64,000 bases of DNA. It comes from an uncultured Verrucomicrobiae bacterium. Lineage in GTDB: Bacteria > Verrucomicrobiota > Verrucomicrobiia > Palsa-1439. The stretch lies in contig CAWEWF010000014.1 of NCBI GenBank assembly GCA_963812605.1, positions 64,001-128,000 of the forward strand, written 5' to 3'. The notes under the pieces were generated by a model that worked only from the letters and a program-made list of their open reading frames with translations, did no database searches and was not told the DNA's origin. Shown in pieces: positions 15,208-44,887 of the stretch. Position 1 is the stretch's first letter; each line of letters opens with the position of its first letter. The translations under genes were made by a program, and so were the position numbers.

Positions 15208-15364
15208 ATTATAGGGCGTGGACTCCTTCGACCACGAAGCCACGAAGGACACGAAGATTTATGGATAGCATTATCCATAGCCGAGGGTGGCGAGGAGGGA
15301 AACGGGCGGCGGAACTGACGAAAGCGGCTTGTGAATTGTAAAGCGGTGACACTCTAAACTTCGC

Positions 15365-16216
15365 TCAACCGGAAATATGAGCGACTTCCTTCCGTATGTC
15401 TTCGCCAGCGGCCTTAATTCCGTGCGGTATGTCGATCCAGATTATACCCTGAATATCTGAGGGTAGTTCAATAGGTCCCTTTCGTAGCGCAATGACTCGG
15501 CCAGTCTTTCTCCCCATTTGGGCGTAGAAGAATCCAAGCTCGAAGACCACGTTCTGTCGCGCTCTCCGCTTGTCGTCGTCAGTTGCGAGACTAACACCCG
15601 AATCGTCCGGTGTCAGAAGAACGAAGACGCAGTCAATGCGAGACGCGAATTCTTCAAATTTTTCAATGATGGTCTTGCCCCGACTTGGTTGCTCGCGGAG
15701 CACAACTGGTTCTTGCCACTTCAGCGTATTCTGGAGGTAGTCCTTAAGTTCGGTTAGTGTTGCTTCGTCATGCCCGTGAACGATGAATGCTTTCGGAGCC
15801 GGAATGGTCGATAAAACCCCGATCTTTTCGAGGGCCCGAAGTAGAGAATGCGGGCCTTCATCCTTGAATATGAAGGGGATTCCCTGTTCGGACGCCCATT
15901 CGCTCGCCTCGCCCCCCACGATTCCCGACGAAAGCAAGATGAGGGGCATCTTATGGCCGCGATTTTTGACTTCTCGGCACAGTGCGACGCCAGAGAAGAA
16001 ACCTGCCCGTGCTGATTCCGGTGAAATCCCCGATTCCGCGGGATCATTGGGCAGCATCACATCCGAAATTACGCAACCGAAACCTTCGAGAGGCATATGC
16101 AGCGCCTGCTGCACACTTCCAGCGACGACACTTTCAAAGCCGTTATCGGACAAGAGTTCTGTAAGTCGGATGGCGTAATAGTGGTCGTCTTCAACGATCA
16201 GGATTTTCATACGCAT
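15365..16216 (-). CDS. Response-regulator receiver fused to Cap12/Pycsar-type TIR domain (CAP12_TIR, predicted nucleotide-binding protein)
   Basis: REC: ILIVEDD, ISDVMLP, LLSS, FIFK. TIR: AFIVHGHD, L.EQP..G.TIIEKFE, VLLTPDD, RARQNVVFELG, LPSDI.GI. Confidence 0.88.
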   Translation of the reverse strand: MRMKILIVEDDHYYAIRLTELLSDNGFESVVAGSVQQALHMPLEGFGCVISDVMLPNDPAESGISPESARAGFFSGVALCREVKNRGHKMPLILLSSGIVGGEASEWASEQGIPFIFKDEGPHSLLRALEKIGVLSTIPAPKAFIVHGHDEATLTELKDYLQNTLKWQEPVVLREQPSRGKTIIEKFEEFASRIDCVFVLLTPDDSGVSLATDDDKRRARQNVVFELGFFYAQMGRKTGRVIALRKGPIELPSDIQGIIWIDIPHGIKAAGEDIRKEVAHISG

Positions 16217-16217
16217 T

Positions 16218-16634
16218 TTAGAAAGACATTCTTCCAGTTGCTTTCGATTCAATTAACTTCCTCGCCGTGTCTAATGGTGTCTCCCCTTTCCTCAGGTATA
16301 AAATGTTCTGCTTCTTTAGGTCTTCGATCTTCTCCGCATCAGCTATGACCGATAAGCAGATGATCGCGACCCCTCGCCATTGCTGCCGGATCTTACGTAC
16401 AAAGTGGAATCCTGCGGAAGATGAATCGACTCCTGGGAATCCATCACCTGCAGGCATCATTATATCAGTCACGACGACATCGATATGTTGGTGCTGAAGA
16501 ATGTCCCATCCATCTGTCACATTCGTTTTCGAAATGCAATTGTAGCCTCTGGATTCCAAGGAAAGTCGCAATGCCTCACTAAGCCACGGTTCATCGTCGA
16601 CAAAAAGGATAGTATACTTTGCATTGTCATTCAT
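16218..16634 (-). CDS. Single-domain response regulator (receiver only)
   Basis: ILFVDDE, VTDIMMP, CLSV, YLRK; start overlaps kinase stop (ATGA). Confidence 0.88.
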   Translation of the reverse strand: MNDNAKYTILFVDDEPWLSEALRLSLESRGYNCISKTNVTDGWDILQHQHIDVVVTDIMMPAGDGFPGVDSSSAGFHFVRKIRQQWRGVAIICLSVIADAEKIEDLKKQNILYLRKGETPLDTARKLIESKATGRMSF

Positions 16635-17401
16635 GCCATTCGGCTCCGGGGAAAAACAAGCGTAAACTGGGAGGTCTTTCCATTGGTATCGAGTGTCACT
16701 CTGCCCTCGTGAAGTTGCATCACACGCGTCGCCAAGTAGAGACCAATGCCTGTTCCTGCCGGGACTCTCTGTTTGGCAGCCGCACCGCGAACGCCCCGCT
16801 CGAATATCTTTTCCCTTTCTGCTCCGCTTATCGGCATGCCTACACTGGTTACCGAAACCCCAACACCATCCAACTTTTCGGCGCGAACGGTGATTGCAGT
16901 CCTGGCGTCTGCATATTTTACGGCATTCTCCAGGAGGTTGGATATAGCCTGAGCAACCAAGTTCTTCTCTGCCCGTACCTTCCGAGTATCCAAGATGTCC
17001 TTGAATGAGTCGTTGTCGACAATAATATTTTTCTCAACGTCGAAAGCTTGGGGCTGAAAATCATTGGCGAGGTTGATTGCCAGCAGCATCAGGTCAATGG
17101 GTACTTGGTTTCGCATTTGTCCAAGCTGTTCGTCGGCTTCAAGGTTCGACATCAGAGCGAAGTTCTTAATTAAGTGAACCAGAATTGTCGCTTGGGAATA
17201 CACAGAGCGAAGAAGATTTCCTTTGCGAGGCACCGGAATGCTTTCATCCTTGAGCGCTTCAATGCTCCACTTGATGGCCCCTAGCGGCGCGGTCAACTGG
17301 TGAGCAACATTCTGGAGATACATCCTGCTTAGGTCTTTGGAGGATTGAAGTTGTTTTTTTAGGTCTTCGACCTGTTTGCGGAGCTCTTCGATTTCACTCA
17401 T
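16631..17401 (-). CDS. Cytoplasmic histidine kinase (HisKA + HATPase_c) with no sensor domain
   Basis: H-box VAHQLTAPL, N-box NLLENAVKY, F-box IFERG, G2 GTGIGL; only ~30 aa coiled coil before H-box. Confidence 0.88.
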   Translation of the reverse strand: MSEIEELRKQVEDLKKQLQSSKDLSRMYLQNVAHQLTAPLGAIKWSIEALKDESIPVPRKGNLLRSVYSQATILVHLIKNFALMSNLEADEQLGQMRNQVPIDLMLLAINLANDFQPQAFDVEKNIIVDNDSFKDILDTRKVRAEKNLVAQAISNLLENAVKYADARTAITVRAEKLDGVGVSVTSVGMPISGAEREKIFERGVRGAAAKQRVPAGTGIGLYLATRVMQLHEGRVTLDTNGKTSQFTLVFPRSRMA

Positions 17402-17807
17402 AGGAAGTTCCTTAAACTGGATGCTTCTTCACTCGAATCTCGCCCGACACTCGCCTCAGCAACAGCACGGTGCTGCATGCTGGAGTCTACCAAGCGTTTC
17501 GCCGTTCGAGCAAGCCTGGCGAGTATGGAGTTGCGGCAAAGGATCTAGTATTGGTTATCGGTTTACCCTCTTTTCGGTCAAATCGACCTCAAAACGCCAA
17601 TGTTTACGAGCATTTCGTAGAAAAGCTTCCAAACCTTCCAAAGCTTCCAGAGTGCACGCATGCGATTTTGGGCGTTGGGGTAGAGTTGGCATGTGAGTTG
17701 TATGAAGAAGGTTTCCAGTCGCGGTATGACCGAGAGGACTGCCCACAACAACCAGACGGCGCGCGGGACGCACGCCCTACAATCGGACCCCAGGAAAGGA
17801 TGTAGTT

Positions 17808-18749
17808 ATGATTCCCAGTGATCTAGTCCCCGCAGCAGAGTCAGCAGAAAACAGGCGGGACGCCTGTTCAGCGAAGATGTTGGCGGCGAATCGGAGGAAT
17901 GCTCGCAGATCCACGGGGCCGCGCACGGCGGAAGGGAAGGCGGCTTCGCGGATGAATGCGGTGAAACATGGAATCCTGTCATCGGAGGTGGTGGTGCGGG
18001 GGTTGCGGATCCAGGAGCGGGAGGATGAGTTCCGGGTGTTGCGCGAACGGTGCTGGAAGAGCCTGGCGCCGGTGGGGCCGGTGGAGGAAATGTTGGTGGA
18101 CAAGATCGTGACAGCGCAATGGCGGTTGCGGCGGGCGTTGCTGGCGGAAACGGGGGAGATCGTTCTGAGCGTGGACGGCGGGCGCTGGGAGCGGTCGAGG
18201 CGGGACCCGATTCCGCTGGTGACGTTTTTGGATGAATTCCATGACGCGTCGGTGGCGATGACCAAGTCGACGCAGGGATTGGAATACCTGAGACATATCC
18301 TGAAGAAAGTCCGCGAGGGTTTGGAACTGGACGGAGAATTGACGGAGAAGACGTGCGAGTGGGTGCGGAGGCGATTCATGAACGAACCAAATGCGATGAC
18401 GCAGGCGCTGGAGGAGTATCGCGCGGAGTTCCTGGCGAATGCGGAGGGGTTGAGTGCGGAGGTGCTGAAGGATCGGCATCGGGTGGCCGTGGAGCGGTAC
18501 ATCGAGTTGAAATTGATCGGCTACGCCGAGTTGAGCGGTGAGCGGAAGGAGCGGGAAGACAAGGAGGAGACGGCGCGGCAGGCGGCGAATGTGTTGCCGT
18601 CGACGGAGGTGCTGGAGAAGATTTTGCGGTATGAGAGCGCGCTGGAGCGGCAGTTGTATCGGGCGATGAACCAGCTTGAGAGGCTGCAACGACGACGGGA
18701 AGGGGAGGATGTTCCCCCACCAGTAACGATGCAGTTATCGCGGGGATGA
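17808..18749 (+). CDS. Conserved hypothetical protein (STGP-x-T-x-EGK...NA-x-KHG family); true start possibly 17877
   Basis: AANRRNARRSTGPRTAEGKAASRMNAVKHG N-terminus; WRLRR and RYE..LERQLYRA..QLERLQ motifs. Confidence 0.7.
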   Translation: MIPSDLVPAAESAENRRDACSAKMLAANRRNARRSTGPRTAEGKAASRMNAVKHGILSSEVVVRGLRIQEREDEFRVLRERCWKSLAPVGPVEEMLVDKIVTAQWRLRRALLAETGEIVLSVDGGRWERSRRDPIPLVTFLDEFHDASVAMTKSTQGLEYLRHILKKVREGLELDGELTEKTCEWVRRRFMNEPNAMTQALEEYRAEFLANAEGLSAEVLKDRHRVAVERYIELKLIGYAELSGERKEREDKEETARQAANVLPSTEVLEKILRYESALERQLYRAMNQLERLQRRREGEDVPPPVTMQLSRG

Positions 18750-18833: not shown

Positions 18834-19079
18834 CTACAGGCGCTTTTTGGCGAAGGATCGGCCTGATGCGGTTTTGAGGTAACGCTCAAAGTCCAAGGCC
18901 GATTGGCGATGGGTAAACGCAATGCAAGTCTTGATACGCCAGGGACGAAACGCTCTCGTGTGAATGGACTTTCCGGAGTTGTGCTCGGCAAGTCGCGCCT
19001 TGAAGTCTTCAGTGAAGCCGGCATAGAAGCGGGTTGGGTCTTTTTCGCTGGCGAGGATGTAGACGTAGTAGAATTTCAT
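18834..19079 (-). CDS. GIY-YIG nuclease family protein
   Basis: FYYVYIL...FYAGFT.D...RL.EHNSG...T...PW...A..FERYLK.ASGR. Confidence 0.88.
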   Translation of the reverse strand: MKFYYVYILASEKDPTRFYAGFTEDFKARLAEHNSGKSIHTRAFRPWRIKTCIAFTHRQSALDFERYLKTASGRSFAKKRL

Positions 19080-19141
19080 GGCTTGCGCGGCTGCCCGCCT
19101 TCGCTTCGCTACGACGCGGCAATTTTCGCTCCGAGCGAAAA

Positions 19142-19174
19142 TTGGCGGAGGGGGCGAGATTCGAACTCGCGAGG
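19142..19174. repeat. att core: 33-bp copy of tRNA-Ser 3' end
   Basis: TTGGCGGAGGGGGCGAGATTCGAACTCGCGAGG is identical to 40441-40473. Confidence 0.95.
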
Positions 19175-19290: not shown

Positions 19291-20485
19291 ATGGCCAGCC
19301 TACACAAAGATCCGCAGGGGCGAAGCAAGTTTTGGTACTGCGCTTTCAGCGAATGGGACGCGGACGAACAACGTTGGCAGCGCCGGTTCCGGTCCACCAA
19401 GACTGCCAACAAAGAACAGGCCCTTCAAATCTGCCGGACATGGGAGCAAGCGGCCAAGACTGCCCAGACAGGCCGACTGACACCCGACCGCGCGCGGGAA
19501 ATCCTCGCCAACGGGCTGGAAGGAATTTTTCTCGCCAGCAATCGCGAGCCCATGAAGCGGTACACGGTCCGGGAGTGGGGGCAGCAATGGCTCGACAGCA
19601 AGTTGATCGAGAACACCCCGCGCACCCATGAGCGATATGCCGGCATCATCACCCGGTTTTATGAGCACCTCGGCGCGAAGGCTGACAGGGACATTGCCGC
19701 TGTGACGGCATCGGAGATCACCGCCTTTCGGGACAAGCTGGCAAAAGAGCTTTCGATCAATACCGCCAACCTTGCCGTGAAGACTTTGCGTGTGTGTTTC
19801 GGTGCCGCCTACAGCAATGACCTTATTACCAGCAATACCGCCGCGAAGGTAAAGAAGTTAAAACTGCCGCGCATGGGGCACCGCCGCGAGTTTAAGCCGG
19901 CGGAAATCCGCCTTCTACTGCAGGCCGCCGGTGACAGTGAATGGCGCGGCATGATTCTGACCGCACTCTATTCCGGGCAACGGCTCGGTGATGTGTCACG
20001 GTTGCGGTGGGGGGACGTGCGGCTGGACACCCGCGAGATCGTCTTTCGCGTCAGTAAAACCAACGAAGTTCTGCCGTTGCCGATGGCGCGCCCGCTGTCC
20101 GACTATCTCGAAAGCTTCCCGTCGAGCGACGACGCCAACAGTTTCCTTTTTCCGAAAGCTGCCGCTTGTACCCGCACCGGGTATGTTGAGCAATCAGTTT
20201 TACAAGGTCATGGAACAAGCCGGGCTCGTACCGCAGCGGAAGAACGTCGACACTGGTAAAGGCCACCGCGAGCGTCGCACAGTCAGTTCCTTGTCCTTCC
20301 ACAGTTTGCGTCATAGCTGTGTGACGTTTCTCAAAGCCGCCGGAGTCAGCGATGCCATCGCGCAAGCCATCGCCGGCCATGCGTCTAGTGCCGTCTCGCG
20401 GATTTACACCCACCTTGACGTGGAAACCCTACGCGGCGCTGTCGCCAAACTGCCGGACGTGACGAAGGATGACGCAAAGCGTTGA
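19291..20485 (+). CDS. Tyrosine recombinase/integrase, one frameshift near 20180
   Basis: SGQRLGD (R), VSKT (K), SFHSLRH, IAGH...IYTH; split between ORFs 19291-20259 and 19988-20485. Confidence 0.9.
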
Positions 20486-20486
20486 A

Positions 20487-22156
20487 CCCAGATTTCCCAG
20501 ATTCGCTTCACAAGTCAATGTTAGTGACATACAATGAAGCCGCATAAACAAAGGGTGTGATCGATGTTGAAGCGACAAAAAACGGAGAATCCAATGGGTG
20601 CAAGCTAACAAACAGGCTCTGCGGGTGACTTTCGATAGTCGTTTGAAGCTGGAGTTTCACGGTTCCAAGGTCACCTCCGATGCGGGCTTGCTGGCTTACC
20701 GGGAACTGGATGAGGCGCTGGGACTGACCGCCATGGTGAGTGACCTGCTGAATGATTGGCGCACGGGAAAGAACACGCAACACTCGATGGTGGCGCTGCA
20801 TGCGGCAGTCGATTTTCAGCCGTCTGGCTGGATACGAGGACACCAATGACGCCGAACGGCTCTCGGTTGATCCCACCATGCGGCATGTGGTTGGCGGGCG
20901 AGCCACGGAACGCACGGCGGCTTCCACCAGCCAGATGGGTCGCTTCGAGACCGAGGTGTTGACGCAGCCGCGGAATCTGGCGGAGTTGACGAAGCTGTCG
21001 GGAATATGGATTGAGCGGCTGCGGGAACGCCAGCCGATGCGGGAACTGATCCTGGACATGGATAGTTCGGTGAGCGAAACCTATGGGGAGCAGGAAGGCA
21101 CGGCCTACAACGGGCATTTCGGCTGCACCTGCTACCACCCGCTGTTTTGCTTCAATCAGTTTGGCGATGTGGAAGCAGTCCCTGTTGCGGGAAGGCAACG
21201 TCCATAGCGCCAAGGATTGGCTGAGCGTGCTGGAACCGGTGGTGGCACGCTATCGCGGCCAGAAGTTGCCGCTCTATTTCCGGGCGGATGCCGCCTTTGC
21301 CAACCCGGAGATTTATGAGTATCTGGAAGCCGAAGGTTACGGGTATGCCATCCGGCTGCCAGCCAATGATGTGTTGCTGCGGGAGATCGCGCCGCTGCTG
21401 ACCCGTCCAGTGGGGCGTCCCTCGAACGCGCCGGTGTCTGGTATGCGGACTTTCAGTATCAGGCGAAGAGTTGGGATCGCGCCCGTCGGGTGGTGGCCAA
21501 GGTGGAATGGCACAAGGGGCGAATTGTTCCCTCGCGTCGGGTTCATCGTGACCAATCTGAGCCGGCCAGCCAAACGGGTGGTGCGGTTCTACAACCAGCG
21601 GGGGACGGCGGAGCAGTGGATCAAGGAAGGCAAGAACGCGGTGAAATGGACGCGGCTGTCCTGCCACGACTTTGTGGACAACCAGGTGCGGCTGCAACTG
21701 TTCGTGCTGGCGTACAACCTGGGCAACTTCCTGCGTCAGGCGGTGCTGCCGCAGGTCGGTGCGTCACTGGACGTTGACGACGTTGCGGGAGAAACTGATC
21801 AAGATCGGGGCGAAGGTCGTGCGCCATTCCCGGCAGGTGATCTTCCAGATGGCGGAGGTGGCGGTTCCACGAGAGTTGTTCCGGGCTATTCTGGAAAGGA
21901 TTGGATGGCTGAGATTGCCCATGCCGCTGCCCGGCTGATGCTCGCTGGGCGGCAAATGCGGGAAAGCAAAATGGCTGACGGCGATGCTTTGTCTGCGTTC
22001 GGTCGAAAATCGGTGCAGAACGCAATTTAGAGCCGAAGGCATCGTCTCCGGAGCCTAGAAAAGGCTTGCTTGCAGTGTCAGGAGAGATAAAATGCGATCA
22101 ATGAAACTGAATGGCCCGCGCTGATCGCGGGCCGTAGGTCATATGGGAAATGTAGG
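20487..22156 (+). mobile_element. IS1380 family insertion sequence
   Basis: Terminal IRs CCCAGATTTCCCAGAT vs reverse complement CCTACATTTCCCATAT (13/16); flanks TTGAA / ATGAA; encloses transposase. Confidence 0.8.
20594..21938 (+). pseudogene. IS1380 family DDE transposase, several frameshifts
   Basis: VTSDAGLL, GYED.ND, LDMDSS..ETYG.QEG..YNGH, YHPL, FRADAAF, FYNQRG.AEQWIKEGK, LAYNL spread across frames. Confidence 0.88.
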
Positions 22157-26183: not shown

Positions 26184-26401
26184 GGGACAAATTTTCACCG
26201 GCCAAGTTCCACGAGGCAACATTTCACGGGCCTATTTCCATCTAGCGATTCGGTACCCGTCCGCGTTTCTGGCTCGACACCCTATAGCCGCCCCCCGCTG
26301 GAATCAAGTTCATCAAGAAGGCAGGCCGGTGATGGGCTGTCAAGGCCGCGCTCACATATTCCTTGAATATTGGACGGCATTCGTCCATATTTCACGGTGC
26401 C

Positions 26402-27553
26402 ATGAAGATTAGCCGACTGGAGTTGAAGCACCGGGTGGAGCAGGGATTAAAAACCTTCCCTGTCACGGCGCTCTTGGGGCCGCGGCAGAGCGGCAAGACC
26501 ACGCTTGCCCGCGAGATCGCTGGAAAGAAAGGCCGATACTTCGATCTCGAAAATCCCCGTGACCAAGCGCGACTGACACAGGCGCAATCCGTCCTTGAGG
26601 AGTTGCGCGGCTTGGTCGTACTGGACGAAATACAACGCCGACCCGATTTGATGCCGTTGCTGCGGGTGCTGGCGGATCGCCGTCCATTGCCCGCTCGGTT
26701 TCTGCTGCTCGGCAGTGCTTCGCCCGATTTAATGAAACATTCATCGGAGTCGCTAGCGGGCCGGATTCACTTCGTGGATATGAGCGGGTTCAGTCTACTG
26801 GAAGTCGGCGCAATCCAGCAACGCAAGCTGTGGGTGCGCGGCGGCTTCCCGGACTCGTTCCTGGCCCGAAACGATGCCGATAGTCTGGCATGGCGCGATG
26901 ATTTTATCCGCACGTTTCTGGAGCGCGACCTGCCGCTGCTCGGAGTTCACATTCCGCCGGAGACGTTACGGCGGTTTTGGACGATGCTGGCGCATTATCA
27001 CGGGCAAATCTGGAATGCTTCGGAGTTGGGCAACTCCCTCGGTGTGGCGCACCATGCCACGCGCCGCTACCTGGACGCCTTGGTGGGAGCCTATGTGGTG
27101 CGGCAATTGCAACCGTGGTTTGAGAACGTCGGCAAGCGCGTGGTCAAATCGCCGAAGGTCTATATCCGTGACAGCGGGCTGCTTCACGCCCTGCTCGGCA
27201 TTCCGGATTGGACAAGTTTGCAAGCGCACCCGAAGCTCGGCGCATCGTGGGAAGGCTTCGCGTTGGAGCAGGTCTTGGCGTGGGCAGGCGAACGCAATGC
27301 CTATTTCTGGGCCACGCACGGTGGCGCGGAGTTGGATTTGATGGTGACGCTCGGTGGCAAGCGGTGGGGCTTCGAGTTCAAGTGCTCCGACACGCCGGCG
27401 CTGACCAAGTCCATGATGATTGCCTTGGAAGACCTGAAATTGAAGAAGTTGTGGGTCGTTTACCCCGGCAAGGAGTCCTATCCGCTGCATGACCGTGTTG
27501 AGTGCATTGGCCTAGGTGACTTGGAGAAAGCCCGGCGAGCGAGCGGGGGCTAA
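26402..27553 (+). CDS. AAA_14 ATPase with DUF4143 domain
   Basis: GPRQSGKTT, LDEIQ, LGSAS, ESLAGR, RGGFP, KSPKVY..DSGL, ELD...FEFK. Confidence 0.9.
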   Translation: MKISRLELKHRVEQGLKTFPVTALLGPRQSGKTTLAREIAGKKGRYFDLENPRDQARLTQAQSVLEELRGLVVLDEIQRRPDLMPLLRVLADRRPLPARFLLLGSASPDLMKHSSESLAGRIHFVDMSGFSLLEVGAIQQRKLWVRGGFPDSFLARNDADSLAWRDDFIRTFLERDLPLLGVHIPPETLRRFWTMLAHYHGQIWNASELGNSLGVAHHATRRYLDALVGAYVVRQLQPWFENVGKRVVKSPKVYIRDSGLLHALLGIPDWTSLQAHPKLGASWEGFALEQVLAWAGERNAYFWATHGGAELDLMVTLGGKRWGFEFKCSDTPALTKSMMIALEDLKLKKLWVVYPGKESYPLHDRVECIGLGDLEKARRASGG

Positions 27554-35065: not shown

Positions 35066-35425
35066 CTACGATGAGCCTCTACTGATCGGGGTGATACTGA
35101 TCAAGGCTACGAAAGGTTCGGCACGGTCAAGATCGGCATACCGTCTGGGTTGCATGTGGACTGTGGCGAGTTCATTTTCCCGGAGCAAATCGGCCAGTCG
35201 ACCGAGACGCCAACCCAAAATCATCACGTCGGCGTTGGAGAAGGCGAGCGCAAGTTTTTGCGGCGGAGCGTTCTTATCTTGCCCCGCGTCCGGGTTGGGT
35301 TCCAGGGTGTAATCAATCAACTGGTTGGTGTGAAAGCCACGCCGGCGCTCCTCGTCGACATGGAACTCGATGCAGGCGCAATACTTGACGGAGGTTGTAT
35401 AGCAGTCGTCTTTGGTGGGGTGCAT
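35066..35425 (-). CDS. Hypothetical protein downstream of relaxase
   Basis: MHPTKDDCY...; joined to relaxase in ORF track only through a frameshift. Confidence 0.55.
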   Translation of the reverse strand: MHPTKDDCYTTSVKYCACIEFHVDEERRRGFHTNQLIDYTLEPNPDAGQDKNAPPQKLALAFSNADVMILGWRLGRLADLLRENELATVHMQPRRYADLDRAEPFVALISITPISRGSS

Positions 35426-35447
35426 GGGGTGATTGAGGGTTGAATGT

Positions 35448-38400
35448 TCAGACACCAATGCCGCGAGAGTGGCCGATGCTTTCAGGCGGGGTGATGCCCC
35501 GACGCAGCTTGCGGCGGGCGGACTGCTCTTGCTGCAGAGCTTCCTTGACCGTGCGAGATCGTTTGAGGCCGCTGGTTCGTTTGACGGAGTCGGCCGTTTG
35601 ACGGAGTCAGCCTGTTTTATGGACTCAGCTTGTTTGATGGACTCGGTTTGCTCAAACTTGGTCGTGACAGTTTCCTTTTGCTCAATGACGGACCGTTCGC
35701 GAAGCCATCGCTGCACATCTTCGGCCACCTGTGCGAGCCGTTGCACCGGAGATAAACGCGTGGCGCGGAAAGCTCGCGGCGACTGACGCATCGGGCGCAC
35801 CGTGCGAAAATCTTGGTGCACCGCGCTCGCCGGGGTGCCGATATCCTGCTCTTGCTGCGGTTGTCGCAGGAAACCGAGTTTGGCCAGGTCATCGCGCAGG
35901 CCTTGGAGTTCGACCGCAGCCTTGCGTTCGTGCGAATCGGTCACGCGACGCGCGAGCAGTTCGGCATCATCGGTGAACACATGAACACGCTTGCGCCCGC
36001 GCGAAATGGAAACGTAGAACTGTTCACGGTTCACCGCGCCGAACGAACGCGACGATGCGACCAAAAGCACGTCATCGACGGTCTTGCTCTGTGATGAGTG
36101 TGAGGTTACGGCGTAGCCGTGGGTGAAGGTGTTGAATGTGCCAGGCAGCACCCGGCCATCGGTGAGACTGATACGGCCACCGCTGATCTCCCGAACCTGA
36201 ACACGCTCACCGTTGATGAACTCTTTGCCATGATTAGCTTGCAACAATAGCCAATCGCCAGCAGCGACTTTCAACTCGCGGGACACGCCCACGTCGAACG
36301 AGGCGGCGGCACCGGCCGGGATAAAATCCACTTCCATTCCATCCGGACGGCGAACGCGCAGTCCGTTTTCGAGAACGGCTCGGATTTCGACCGTCTCGCC
36401 CCGATCAAAGTCGCGCGTTTTTCTGACAAAGCGCAGGCGTTGACCCGGTTCGTACTGGTTCGTATTCTTCTTTTGCGCTTGCGTCCACGAGAGCGAATCA
36501 AAAACGCACACTGTCTGCTCATCCTGGCTGACGACACCCTCAGCTTTCAGAACCTCGCGCACCTTCTCGGTCACCGCCTCAATCTCGGCCCAAGTGGGCG
36601 AGACCAGCAATGCGGACCTGCCTTGTTTGGTCGCCGACAGGTATGCCTCAGCCGCCTGCTGGTAAAGCTGCCCATCATCCGTCGCCGCCTCCGTGACCGC
36701 GCCAAGTTCCACGAGCTTGGCAAACGCCTTGTCGGTCTGTTTGGCAGCAGCCAGTTCGACGACCTGACGGAAGACGGCGGGTTTCTGGCGGCGGATGGTG
36801 GTCAGTTCGCTGAAGCGGTAGGAGGAATACTGTTCAAGGATGCGCAGCGCATCGCCGCGAGCAACGGAAGCGTGTTGGCCGGTGTCGCCGGAGAGCACCA
36901 CACGAGCGCAGTTACTAACGGCCAGATTGAACAGTTTCACCATGTCATCGAGGCCAACAGCGCCGGCTTCATCCAGGACAATCACGCTGCGGGCGGAAAG
37001 TGTTCGCTGCATGGCCCAATCCGTCAGCAGCTTGGCAAGCGTGACCGCTTCCAGCTTGTCCTTGCGTAGCGTATCGGCAGCGGCAGCAGTCGGAGCGCAG
37101 AACAGAGCCTCGAAACCTTCGTTGTCGAGTATCCGGTTCAGTTCAACGAGGACCGTGCTTTTACCGGTGCCTGCCAACCCACGGAAGCCGGTGAAGCGGT
37201 CCGGGCTGGTGAGAACATGTTCCAATGCTTTGCGCTGATCCGGGCCGAGATGAGACGGCGGTTCGTAGCCGCTGGTCATCGGGGTGACGGTGTCGATGGT
37301 GGCGTTGACCGTGCGAATCAACAAAAGCTCCTTGGTGAGGATGTCGCGGGTCGAGAACTCCGAACCGACGCGCACCAGCTCAGAGCGTTCCGCCAGTGCA
37401 TTCTTTAGCAGCGGCAGGTCCAGTTGGCCGCAGCCGTTGACCAGGGCGGCTTCCAGAATCTTGTGTTGCGGCGCGACCGAAGCACGCTCGAAAACATGCG
37501 CGATGCCGTGGTCAACAGCCTCGCGCATCGTGACCGAGTGGGTGAAATCCCCCGACTGACCATTGGCCGCTTCGACCACTTTGCGTAGCGCCCGTTTCTC
37601 GAAGAAACCGATCTCGCCAAGTTGCTGTCGGCGCACTTGATCATCGGACGCGCCCTTGAGCTTCTTGGGGCGGGACTGGTGGACGACGTGAGCGATCTCC
37701 TGCTTGGTCAGTTTGCGACCGAGCTTCGCCTCCTGACGTTTCACGGCCAGGTCCCGTTGCTGCGACCGTTTCGAGAACCGGTCAATCAACTCAGGCGCGA
37801 CGCCCTCGATCTCGAACCCATTGGCGGCCTTCCGGGTGCAGTAGCCCGAGCCGGTGGAGCCGCTTGGCCAGTTCGTTGCGATAGACGGCCGTGCCGTAGT
37901 TGAGCGCACCGAACATATCGCCGGTTTGCAGCGCCTTCCACCGCTTCTCGGACTTGTCCCAAGTGCAGTTGAACAGGACGAAATGCGTGTGCAGTTGCGG
38001 GTCCAGGGCGCGGGAAGTCGTATGCAGGAACGCTGCGCCAACCAAGTTGCCAGTGATGCGATCCTGATCTTCGAATGGCGGCCTTGCGGATACGCGTGGC
38101 GGCGAACTGCTCCAACTCACGCAGTGCCATCGTGGAGGCCTCTTGGTGTGCCTCGATGATGCGATGGTCATTCATCATGACCGCCAGAATCGACACCGAC
38201 TTGGGCGGCGAGCAGACGAAATCGAAATAGAGCCGACGCTCCCGGAACTGTTGCGGGGTGAGTTGTTCGCCTGTAGTTGGGTGCAGGTTATCGCAGAGGC
38301 GCAGGAACGCTTCGCGGGCGACAGCCTCACCTGGCTGCAAGCCCAACTGTTCTGCGCCGATGCCAATCCAATGACCGCCTTGATCGTGTGCCAACACTTC

Positions 38401-38490
38401 GCCCTGAGCGTAGTAATCGTTGTGGGAGAGGTGCTCGTCGAAGTAGGTCGTGGCAGCGGCTCGATTCTTTTGTGGGATGGCGCTGAACAT
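35448..38490 (-). CDS. MOBF (TrwC-type) relaxase-helicase, at least 3 frameshifts
   Basis: NDYY, FDFVCSPPKSVS, HTTSRALDPQLHTH, FEIEGV..FSKRS; helicase GLAGTGKST, DEAG, GYAVTSH, YVSISRGR. Confidence 0.9.
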
Positions 38491-38573
38491 GGCTGAGGAG
38501 GTTACCGGAAACCGTCGCTTAAAGTTGTTCCCAAATGGGAACCACTTGGCAGGTATCCTTGTGGTGATATGGG

Positions 38574-38640
38574 CGGCGTTGAAAGCGCCATTAGTCATCG
38601 CTCCGCAGTGTCGCACGAAAGTCGGCGTGTGTTATGTATC
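38574..38640. promoter_or_regulatory. Candidate oriT/nic region
   Basis: CGCAC-GAAA-GT(CG)GCG-TGTGTTATG resembles the R388 nic hairpin; lies between divergent relaxase and accessory genes. Confidence 0.45.
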
Positions 38641-40380: not shown

Positions 40381-40441
40381 AATCTGTCTGTCTACTAGTC
40401 TTGATCACGAAATATCTCAATTTTACTATAGAAAAAGAAGT

Positions 40442-40533
40442 TGGCGGAGGGGGCGAGATTCGAACTCGCGAGGGCCTTTGCAGACCCCACACGCTTTCCA
40501 GGCGTGCGCATTAGACCACTCTGCCACCCCTCC
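40442..40533 (-). tRNA. tRNA-Ser(GGA)
   Basis: GGAGGGGTGGCAGAGTGG...CACGC-CTGGAAA-GCGTG, long variable arm, GTTCGAATC, CCA end. Confidence 0.96.
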
Positions 40534-43295: not shown

Positions 43296-44887
43296 ATGAA
43301 CCAGATACACAACCCAATCCTCCGGGGTTTTACCCGGATCCGTCATTTCTCCGGGTCGGCGACGATTATTACATCGCCAACAGCACCTTCGAATGGTTTC
43401 CCGGCGTGCCGATTCACCATTCCAAAGACCTCGTCAACTGGCGGCTGATCGGCCACGCGCTGACCCGCCGTTCCCAACTGAATCTCGTGGGCATCGGCGA
43501 TTCCGCCGGCATCTGGGCGCCGTCGCTGAGCCATTGCGAGGGGCAATTCTGGCTCATCTACACCATCGTCCGGACGCGCGTCGGCAACTTTAAGGACGTG
43601 CATAATTACCTCGTCACAGCGCCGGACATTCTCGGGCCGTGGTCGGACCCGATCTATCTCAACTCCAGCGGATTTGACCCGTCGCTCTTTCATGATGACG
43701 ATGGGCGCAAGTGGTTGGTGAATATGCTTTGGGACTTTCGCAAAGACCGTTCACGGTTTGCCGGTATTGTGCTTCAAGAGTACGATCCGCAAGCGAGGAA
43801 ACTTGTGGGTCCGATCCGAAACATTCTTGCCAAAAAAGTGCTTACCGAAGGTCCCAATCTCTACAAGCACGACGGTTATTATTATCTGATGCTCGCCGAG
43901 GGCGGCACCGGCTGGAGCCACGGGATTTCGATGGCGCGCGCCAAATCCATCACGGGTCCGTATGAACTCGATCCCCAAGAATCGATCCTGACGGCGCGCG
44001 ATGATGAATCCATCGAACTGCAGAAGGCCGGCCACGGGGAATTGGTTGAGACGCCGTCGGGCGAATGGTATTTGGCCCACCTCTGCAGCCGCCCCGTCGG
44101 CAAGGAACGCCGGTGCATCCTGGGACGTGAAACAGCCATTCAACGGGTCGCGTGGTTGGCTGACGGATGGTTGCGCCTGGCTGCCGGTGGCACACGACCG
44201 CAGATTGAAGTCCCCGCGCCAAAGGACGTGGCGCTCCATCCCTGGCCGGCGGATCCAGACCGGGATGATTTTGATTCGGCGAAACTCAGCCCGTCGTGGA
44301 GTTCACTGCGCGTTCCGGTGGAGGAAAGCTGGTTGACGCTTACAGAGCGCCCGGGCTGGCTGCGGCTGCGGGGAAGGGAAAGCCAACATTCCTTTTTCGA
44401 GCAAAGCCTGGTTGCCAAACGCTTGACAACCCTCCGTTGCACAGTGGAGACGTGCGTTGAATTTAGCCCCACACATTTCACACAGATGGCCGGGCTGATC
44501 TGCTGGTATGACACACGGACGCATTACTACCTGCGAATCACACATGAGGAATCGCACGGCAAAGTCCTCGGGATCGTCCTGACGGATGACGGCAAGTATG
44601 ATGAATTGACCGACAGCCAGATTGGCATCGCAGATTGGAAGCAGTGTTATCTTCGCGCCAACATCGACTGCGAGCGCCTCCAGTTTTTCGCTTCGGCAGA
44701 TGGGCGGCAATGGCAACCCATCGGCCCCAGCCTCGATGCCACGAAGCTCGCGGACGATTATGGCCAGGGTCTCCACTTTACCGGCGCCTTCGTCGGCCTA
44801 TGCGCGCAGGACCTGGGCGGAACGCGTGTCGTCGCGGACTTCGACTATTTCTCGGTCACAGTGAATGGTACGCTCGGAGGGATTTGA
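43296..44887 (+). CDS. GH43 beta-xylosidase/arabinosidase, frameshift near 43330
   Basis: NPIL.GF.PDPS, STFEWFPG, WAPSL, GFDPSLFHDDDG, EGP, AEGGT, GH, LGRET, C-terminal FTGAFVG. Confidence 0.92.

Follow-up and report, generated by a model that had tools for sequence, protein, structure and literature searches.

What does a histidine kinase control when the response regulator encoded next to it carries, in place of a DNA-binding output, a TIR domain of the type that is found in the antiphage effectors Cap12 and PycTIR? The question is raised by a locus of an uncultured Verrucomicrobiae bacterium (Palsa-1439; assembly GCA_963812605.1, contig CAWEWF010000014.1), where three minus-strand open reading frames (ORFs) coding for a histidine kinase, a lone receiver and a receiver-TIR fusion fill positions 15365-17401 of the 64,000-nucleotide stretch of DNA analyzed here (hereinafter the window, to which coordinates refer unless another contig or locus is named). 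We judge it probable, if only by a modest measure, that this triad is a self-contained mobile two-component module with an enzymatic output, namely a phage-defense circuit resembling Detocs in which a TIR NADase takes the place of the PNP ATP nucleosidase.

The first gene of the triad (16631-17401, minus strand) encodes a minimal histidine kinase of 256 amino acids with HisKA and HATPase_c domains, the second (16218-16634, minus strand) a lone receiver of 138 amino acids (Response_reg), and the third (15365-16216, minus strand), the effector gene, a protein of 283 amino acids that combines PF00072 with PF10137. The receiver domain of the fusion, delimited by alignment and structural matches, spans residues ~3-131 (15824-16210), and the Cap12/PycTIR-type TIR domain, delimited by PF10137, spans residues ~143-263 (15428-15790). 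The stop codon of the kinase and the start codon of the lone receiver share an ATGA, and a single nucleotide separates the lone-receiver stop from the ATG of the fusion at 16216. A sequence-only reading of this DNA had described exactly such a tightly coupled operon, AT-richer than its flanks, and both parts of the description are borne out, the first by direct reading and the second by a G+C content of 0.48-0.52 across 15250-17750 against 0.58-0.63 in the flanks. The fusion can start at ATG 16216 (283 amino acids) or two codons later at 16210, and its longest frame begins with TTG at 16252; a database protein of 281 amino acids (P0004) that is 100% identical to the fusion fits the start at 16210. 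The promoter of the operon presumably lies within the AT-richer intergenic stretch 5' of the kinase (17402-17807, minus strand; G+C 0.48-0.50), in which a scan for a sigma-70-like consensus found no site.

The fusion's C-terminal domain matches the CAP12-PCTIR_TIR profile (PF10137) at 9.9e-32 (score 109.9 bits, cut-off 24.7 bits; positions 2-117 of the 119 in the profile), and a sequence search of the PDB with the C-terminal 145 residues retrieved the Cap12 TIR-STING structure 9lmq (E = 9.6e-06) and, more weakly, 7un8. Given that the model of the full-length fusion was uninformative on the TIR part, a separate AlphaFold2 model of the TIR domain was built (predicted local distance difference test score 82.9), for which the top Foldseek matches are 9lmq, 9lmr and 7un8 (template modeling scores 0.60-0.70, E from 3.8e-07 to 5.9e-04) at a sequence identity of 20-23% to the solved Cap12 TIRs; animal TIRs, DNPH1 and deoxyribosyltransferases rank far below TIR-STING. 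According to the accessible text of the SfSTING study, R78 and N80 provide the phosphodiester and ribose contacts, E84 is catalytic, and D110 reaches into the partner subunit's active site upon filament formation (Morehouse et al., PMC9402430). Sequence alignment places R220, N222, E226 and D254 of the fusion opposite these four residues (by our count, residue numbers in the PDB chain differ by eight from those in the paper), and among the 52 full-length homologs from the retrieved loci R220 and D254 are kept in all, and N222 and E226 in 51 each. Glu226 is thus the putative catalytic residue of the fusion. The sequence-only reading had assigned the domain to the same family with the same expected glutamate, and the motifs that it had named in the receiver-TIR protein are all present and show little or no variation among 30 aligned homologs. 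A complex prediction for two copies of the fusion scored 0.10 against a mark of 0.42 in a run made without controls, and nothing is drawn from it.

Both receivers retain the residues expected of a phospho-acceptor. The phospho-acceptor pocket of the lone receiver (Response_reg, 8.1e-15, 55.4 bits against a cut-off of 30.2) is intact, with D13, D14, D57 and S95 kept in 46/46 triad-linked homologs. The receiver of the fusion (34.1 bits against the same cut-off) has the E9/D10/D11 acidic pocket, the phospho-acceptor D52, S96 and K118; among the 52 homologs, D52 and a Ser or Thr at position 96 are present in all and K118 in 48. In both proteins, the loop that follows the acceptor Asp is extended by an insertion of 10-13 residues, which in the fusion amounts to 13 residues in the beta3-alpha3 loop. 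Domain scans with Pfam and NCBIfam found no DNA-binding output in either receiver, in agreement with the sequence-only reading. Foldseek matches of the full-length fusion model are dominated by receiver domains, with PleD, RssB and PorX among the top folds. In PleD (receiver-GGDEF), RssB and PorX, a receiver governs an attached enzyme or adaptor via phosphorylation-dependent association, but the outputs are signaling or proteolysis-targeting ones that belong to housekeeping circuits, and none is a TIR. A protein-atlas search with the receiver part of the fusion, TIR families set aside, returned generic stand-alone receiver clusters only and no fusions to other effectors.

The kinase consists of a short N-terminal coiled coil (judged by eye), a DHp domain, in which His34 is the H-box histidine, and a CA domain; only ~25 residues precede the DHp domain. 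It matches HisKA (2.2e-06, 28.1 bits against a cut-off of 26.9) and HATPase_c (3e-16, 60.3 bits against 26.4) in Pfam and, below threshold in every case, CreC, PhoR and WalK in NCBIfam; neither these scans nor the alignment of the kinase revealed a transmembrane or sensor domain. The linked homologs have complete stop-to-stop frames of ~257-341 amino acids, and a search among longer proteins, which is weak evidence, yielded a single match, a hybrid kinase with 25% identity. When the window kinase was aligned with 38 homologs from loci L001-L094, the H-box, N-box and G2 box proved to be at least 90% conserved, and the G1-box Asp column holds Ser or Asn, never Asp, in all 39 sequences (Ser in the window kinase, opposite the G1 Asp of VicK 4i5s in an HMMER alignment). 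This Asp is the residue of GHKL ATPases that contacts the amino group of the adenine in ATP.

The receiver-TIR family is large. Among 8000 candidates scored, 6833 match the fusion at E<=0.001, and 105 of the 120 homologs listed, which are 53-100% identical, are marked as PF00072+PF10137. A library clustered at 50% identity yielded 9333 matches at E<=0.001 and 280 at 1e-30; among the best 150 cluster representatives, 94 cover both domains, 15 are partial and 41 match the TIR part only, the latter having other N-termini of 12-408 residues. We retrieved 5 genome, 80 metagenome and 80 viral-contig loci and used the three window proteins as queries against the ORFs of all six frames. The tally of non-viral loci omits the window's own (L006, L007) and the TIR-only matches from the phylum (L008-L014), and counts a locus as "none" if no ORF matches the kinase at E<1e-15 or the lone receiver at E<1e-10. 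Of the 68 non-viral loci with a receiver match, 22 show the order kinase-receiver-fusion and 5 receiver-fusion cut by a contig end, 17 show fusion-kinase-receiver and 3 fusion-kinase cut by a contig end, and 21 show none, many of these being located at contig ends. Where at least 1400 bp are available on both sides, the triad is present in 16 of 21 loci (7 kinase-receiver-fusion, 9 fusion-kinase-receiver) and missing in 5. The two gene orders track two sequence clades, with >50% and ~40% identity to the window fusion, respectively, and the kinase diverges in step. This linkage, together with the family scores, the fold matches and the occurrence of the two gene orders across phyla, upholds the earlier proposal that kinase, receiver and receiver-TIR are wired as one unit, and the triad is conserved. 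A Verrucomicrobiia metagenome-assembled genome (MAG) carries a decayed triad (L004, 5802-6576), in which an 80-residue kinase fragment (residues 1-60) is followed by the fusion from residue 91 onward, so that the lone receiver and the first 90 residues of the fusion are missing.

The closest known system is Detocs, to which we liken the triad by architecture and published description as opposed to a profile match. In the accessible text of its description, Detocs protects Escherichia coli from phages by means of three proteins, namely the kinase DtcA, which bears TPR repeats, the lone receiver DtcB and DtcC, a receiver fused to PNP; defense needs the His of the kinase and the Asp of DtcC, mutation of the DtcB Asp is toxic in a way that depends on the effector, DtcB is proposed to act as a phosphate buffer, and effectors other than PNP include a restriction endonuclease, a TOPRIM protein and a transmembrane hydrolase (Rousset et al. 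2023, 10.1101/2023.01.24.525353). As far as this text goes, both systems thus combine a kinase with one receiver that stands alone and another that is fused to an enzyme capable of arresting the cell, the A-B-C naming of the Detocs genes implies the gene order that is seen in the window, and the concept of the triad is already known from Detocs. The differences concern the TIR effector, the second gene order and the kinase: DtcA is a large protein that has TPR repeats and carries its His at position 645, whereas the window kinase has 256 amino acids, is sensor-less and shows an altered G1 box that changes the predicted ATP pocket. The Cap12-type TIR is not among the effectors named above, but Table S5 of the Detocs paper may list more; the table was outside our search and may bear on the novelty of the TIR effector. 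A PADLOC scan of the triad proteins matched no family named Detocs, the presence of Detocs in the PADLOC library being unconfirmed.

By analogy with this system, which in its accessible description shows by experiment that a kinase, a buffer receiver and a receiver-effector make a workable antiphage design, we propose the following scheme. The kinase would autophosphorylate on His34, and Asp52 of the receiver-TIR protein and Asp57 of the lone receiver would compete for its phosphoryl group; for the lone receiver, we propose the role of a phosphate sink or buffer that would set the threshold of the response. Phosphorylation of Asp52 beyond the capacity of the buffer would alter the association of the receiver domains and thereby let the Cap12-type TIRs pack, with Asp254 of one subunit completing the Glu226 site of another; in Cap12, the packing of filaments completes the active site in trans, as described in the accessible part of the SfSTING paper (PMC9402430). 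Hydrolysis of NAD+ would then arrest the cell, that is, result in abortive infection. Phosphotransfer, the direction of control (on and not off), oligomerization, NAD+ as the substrate and a phage as the trigger are all inferred. The sequence-only reading had proposed that Asp phosphorylation stands in for the second messenger and that the lone receiver acts as a sink; the logic matches that of Detocs, a precedent that it did not name.

From CBASS and Pycsar, the triad would differ on the input side. The TIR of the fusion belongs to the same subfamily as those of Cap12 (TIR-STING) and PycTIR by profile, sequence and fold (PF10137; 7un8, 9lmq, 9lmr), and it retains the catalytic Glu, the Arg and Asn of the pocket and the Asp that acts in trans; the input domain, however, is a receiver and not a STING, SAVED or cyclic-mononucleotide sensor, no CD-NTase or linked cyclase was found, and the trigger would be a covalent phosphoryl group as opposed to a diffusible nucleotide. 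SMODS, SAVED and STING domains were not found in the genome that contains the window (90% complete; the SAVED and STING searches matched nothing in any control genome either), in line with what the sequence-only reading had reported for the window. The only cyclases found in this genome are two class III domains on another contig, unlinked to the triad (C8, 125027-125605 and 144714-145295, in frames of 656 and 661 amino acids).

The TIR module on its own points to defense. The best PADLOC match of the fusion is PDC-S35 (5.4e-46, residues 140-278, profile positions 118-250 of 264), which we take to be a single-gene phage-defense candidate; the CBASS TIR effector profile (8e-13) and PycTIR (5e-09) come next, and all three cover the TIR part only. 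Single-gene proteins of 220-310 amino acids similar to PDC-S35 are common on viral contigs, but the N-terminal part of this candidate is not a recognizable receiver and neither a kinase nor a lone receiver accompanies it. All 80 viral-contig loci (IMG/VR; L095-L174, analyzed apart from the tally) carry a PF10137-type gene, and one of these (L095) encodes a full receiver-TIR protein, with no kinase next to it. We count the match to PDC-S35 and the PF10137-type genes on viral contigs in favor of the Detocs-like defense circuit, as a link to defense that is suggested by sequence similarity. Those examined among the remaining IMG/VR contigs (L096-L174) match the TIR part behind different N-termini; single genes for ~160-330 amino acids with a C-terminal PF10137 domain and an unannotated N-terminus are common there, sometimes as two adjacent copies (e.g., L096, L117 and L152).

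The triad is a horizontally mobile, sporadic cassette, as is apparent from cross-phylum identity, the dip in G+C content and the variable spot that it occupies. Among 401 genomes sampled across the phylum, the full fusion is present only in the genome of the window, with matches to the TIR part alone in 7 others, and the triad kinase (six candidates scored per genome) is likewise confined to this genome. Within the genus (18 genomes), the window form of the fusion occurs once; a second genome has a copy with 47% identity that belongs to the other clade, and a third has a TIR-only match. Full-length relatives of the fusion with 55-58% identity come from MAGs of Thermodesulfovibrionales, Terriglobales and Planctomycetota. 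A survey of public sequencing runs yielded no RNA run with the locus and a single DNA run, whose share of words was 0.05; nothing on expression or habitat is drawn from it.

The spot of the triad is located between an ABC-transporter pair and a 32-nucleotide copy of the 3' end of tRNA-Ser(GGA). This copy (19142-19173, minus strand), 1.7 kb from the kinase start, and the sequence at 40441-40472 form an exact 32-nucleotide direct repeat, of which none is expected by chance; the second copy is contained in the intact tRNA-Ser at 40442-40533, and other tRNAs of the window are at 44866 and 44952. The repeats bound a 21.3-kb integrated element (19142-40472) that encodes an integrase (19291-20259 and 19988-20485, with the catalytic part in the second frame), transposase-like ORFs in three frames, named from translation only (20598-22030), a DUF4143 AAA ATPase (26363-27553) and, split over two ORFs, a TrwC/TraI relaxase-helicase (35069-38616), and that looks like a decaying integrative mobilizable element. 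In three congeners, the tRNA-Ser(GGA) at the first site is intact, and unrelated DNA of 3.7-6.9 kb takes the place of the triad, which accordingly lies outside the element and yet in a variable, tRNA-adjacent spot. The earlier suggestion of a nearby tRNA integration site therefore holds in part: the tRNA-Ser 3'-end repeat is close by, but no intact tRNA is, and the triad is not part of the element. A tmRNA match at 19154-19171 (Rfam, E = 0.014) was rejected as being the tRNA-Ser 3' end. Between the triad and the repeat, an ORF for an Arg/Glu-rich protein of 313 amino acids (17808-18749, plus strand) has no match in Pfam, PADLOC or NCBIfam and is followed by a gene for a small GIY-YIG nuclease (18834-19148, minus strand) that abuts the tRNA-Ser 3' fragment; a stretch 83% identical to the latter gene is located beside the intact tRNA-Ser of one congener (G412; L184, 7167-7418).

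Several observations weigh against the Detocs-like defense circuit. The scheme itself is a prediction from sequence, structural models and analogy. A clear enrichment in defense islands, for which the sequence-only reading had suggested a survey, was not seen: the 92 ORFs flanking 23 triad loci, for which there is no background rate, are mostly housekeeping genes (e.g., for histidinol dehydrogenase, citrate synthase, a chaperonin and MutL), and mobile or defense-like genes among them are limited to RhuM (2), integrase (2), IstB (1), a restriction endonuclease (1), PDC-S05 (2) and PDC-S23 (2). Similarly, PADLOC matched 0 of 10 ORFs in the variable spot of the three congeners, where Pfam identified only one DUF3800 protein and one RCC1-repeat protein. 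The missing island signal weakens the defense interpretation without refuting it. PADLOC does not recognize the triad as a complete system, and only its TIR and ATPase parts match candidate families; of the database checks suggested in the sequence-only reading, the search for PF10137 and for PADLOC families was thus positive for the TIR part (PF10137 and PDC-S35) and negative for the system as a whole. The altered G1 box calls ordinary ATP-dependent kinase activity into question, and members of the kinase family may differ in how they bind the nucleotide, favor another donor or work chiefly as phosphatases or phosphotransferases. Finally, the claim that the kinase senses infection found no structural basis: the kinase has ~25 residues ahead of the DHp domain, no sensor domain and no close longer relatives.

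An alternative has the same wiring and a physiological role, and we consider it possible but rather unlikely: the receiver-TIR protein would lower NAD+ or produce an ADP-ribose-derived signal in response to nutrition or stress, leading to dormancy or a metabolic shut-down. The largely housekeeping surroundings of the triad and the lack in the kinase of a domain able to bind a phage component fit such a role, and so do several variants of the system. Among the cluster representatives, P0214 has an N-terminal phosphotransferase-system HPr domain on a receiver-TIR protein, and a related TIR module follows a LacI-type periplasmic-binding-like ligand-binding domain (P0189); a double-receiver-TIR gene is located directly after that of a hybrid kinase with two receivers and Hpt (L050, 1268-4560), and two of the five triad-less loci (L041 and L052) encode a different HATPase_c protein next door. 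The HPr- and Hpt-linked variants hint at metabolic rather than phage inputs and, to this extent, count against the Detocs-like circuit. A housekeeping regulator, however, is expected to be vertically inherited, so the sporadic, mobile distribution of the triad (1/401 genomes of the phylum and, for the window form, 1/18 of the genus) argues against a physiological role, as do the decayed copy in L004 and the foreign G+C content; furthermore, the characterized PF10137 members that we encountered are, in the accessible parts of the respective sources, all abortive-infection effectors.

A bolder proposal, which we regard as clearly unlikely in its full extent, is that the sensor-less kinase is itself the sensor. 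Its remodeled nucleotide pocket would couple the flow of phosphoryl groups to the condition of the nucleotide pool, with the lone receiver as the threshold-setting part, and the triad would be an autonomous NAD+-cutting switch that responds to the metabolic state and belongs to a widespread class of "NADase response regulators", not merely a Detocs with a swapped effector. Such a kinase might take its cue from a donor other than ATP, or it might register that nucleotides collapse or are chemically altered when the cell is infected or starving.

Very unlikely, in our assessment, is an inverted logic reminiscent of toxin-antitoxin systems, in which a constitutively active kinase keeps the TIR domain silent by phosphorylation and the loss of phosphorylation, brought about by ATP collapse, host shut-off or a kinase-blocking phage protein, releases the NADase, with the lone receiver tuning the decay time. 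Constitutive activity is the simplest default for a kinase without an input domain, in their tight translational coupling, the three genes are similar to addiction modules, and the cassette is mobile and easily lost. Nevertheless, strong constitutive activity of the kinase does not sit easily with its atypical G1 box, and in Detocs, as described in the accessible text cited above, the effector Asp is needed for defense and the loss of the buffer Asp is toxic, which implies that phosphorylation is the "on" signal. Highly improbable, finally, is a TIR-like domain that serves as a scaffold or that, like the related DNPH1 and deoxyribosyltransferase folds, has a different nucleotide or nucleoside as its substrate: Foldseek also lists DNPH1 and 2'-deoxyribosyltransferase (E of ~1e-3 to 1e-2) and the identity to the solved Cap12 TIRs is only 20-23%, but the best sequence and fold matches are to Cap12 TIR-STING, all four residues of the SfSTING NAD+ site are kept, and the PF10137 score is far above the cut-off.

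In the literature covered by our search, to which subscription papers and supplements did not belong, we found no description of a receiver-TIR response regulator or of the triad. The arrangement is not described in the accessible parts of PMC7824862, PMC9503650, PMC7159879 and PMC8195603, nor in those of 10.1101/2025.09.30.679545, 10.64898/2025.12.03.692087 and 10.64898/2026.04.30.722052.

The receiver-TIR family is not only large but also hosted by soil, sediment and groundwater bacteria of several phyla that are poorly served by defense screens in model organisms. The sensor-less kinase with its altered ATP pocket raises the question of what is being sensed, and the triad, as a small soluble system, is convenient for the study of how a receiver domain controls the packing of TIR domains. 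If the proposed mechanism holds, covalent phosphorylation of an Asp can replace the binding of a cyclic nucleotide as the trigger for the assembly of a TIR NADase, and two-component systems and TIR immunity, the two largest signaling vocabularies of bacteria, would be joined in a single three-gene unit.

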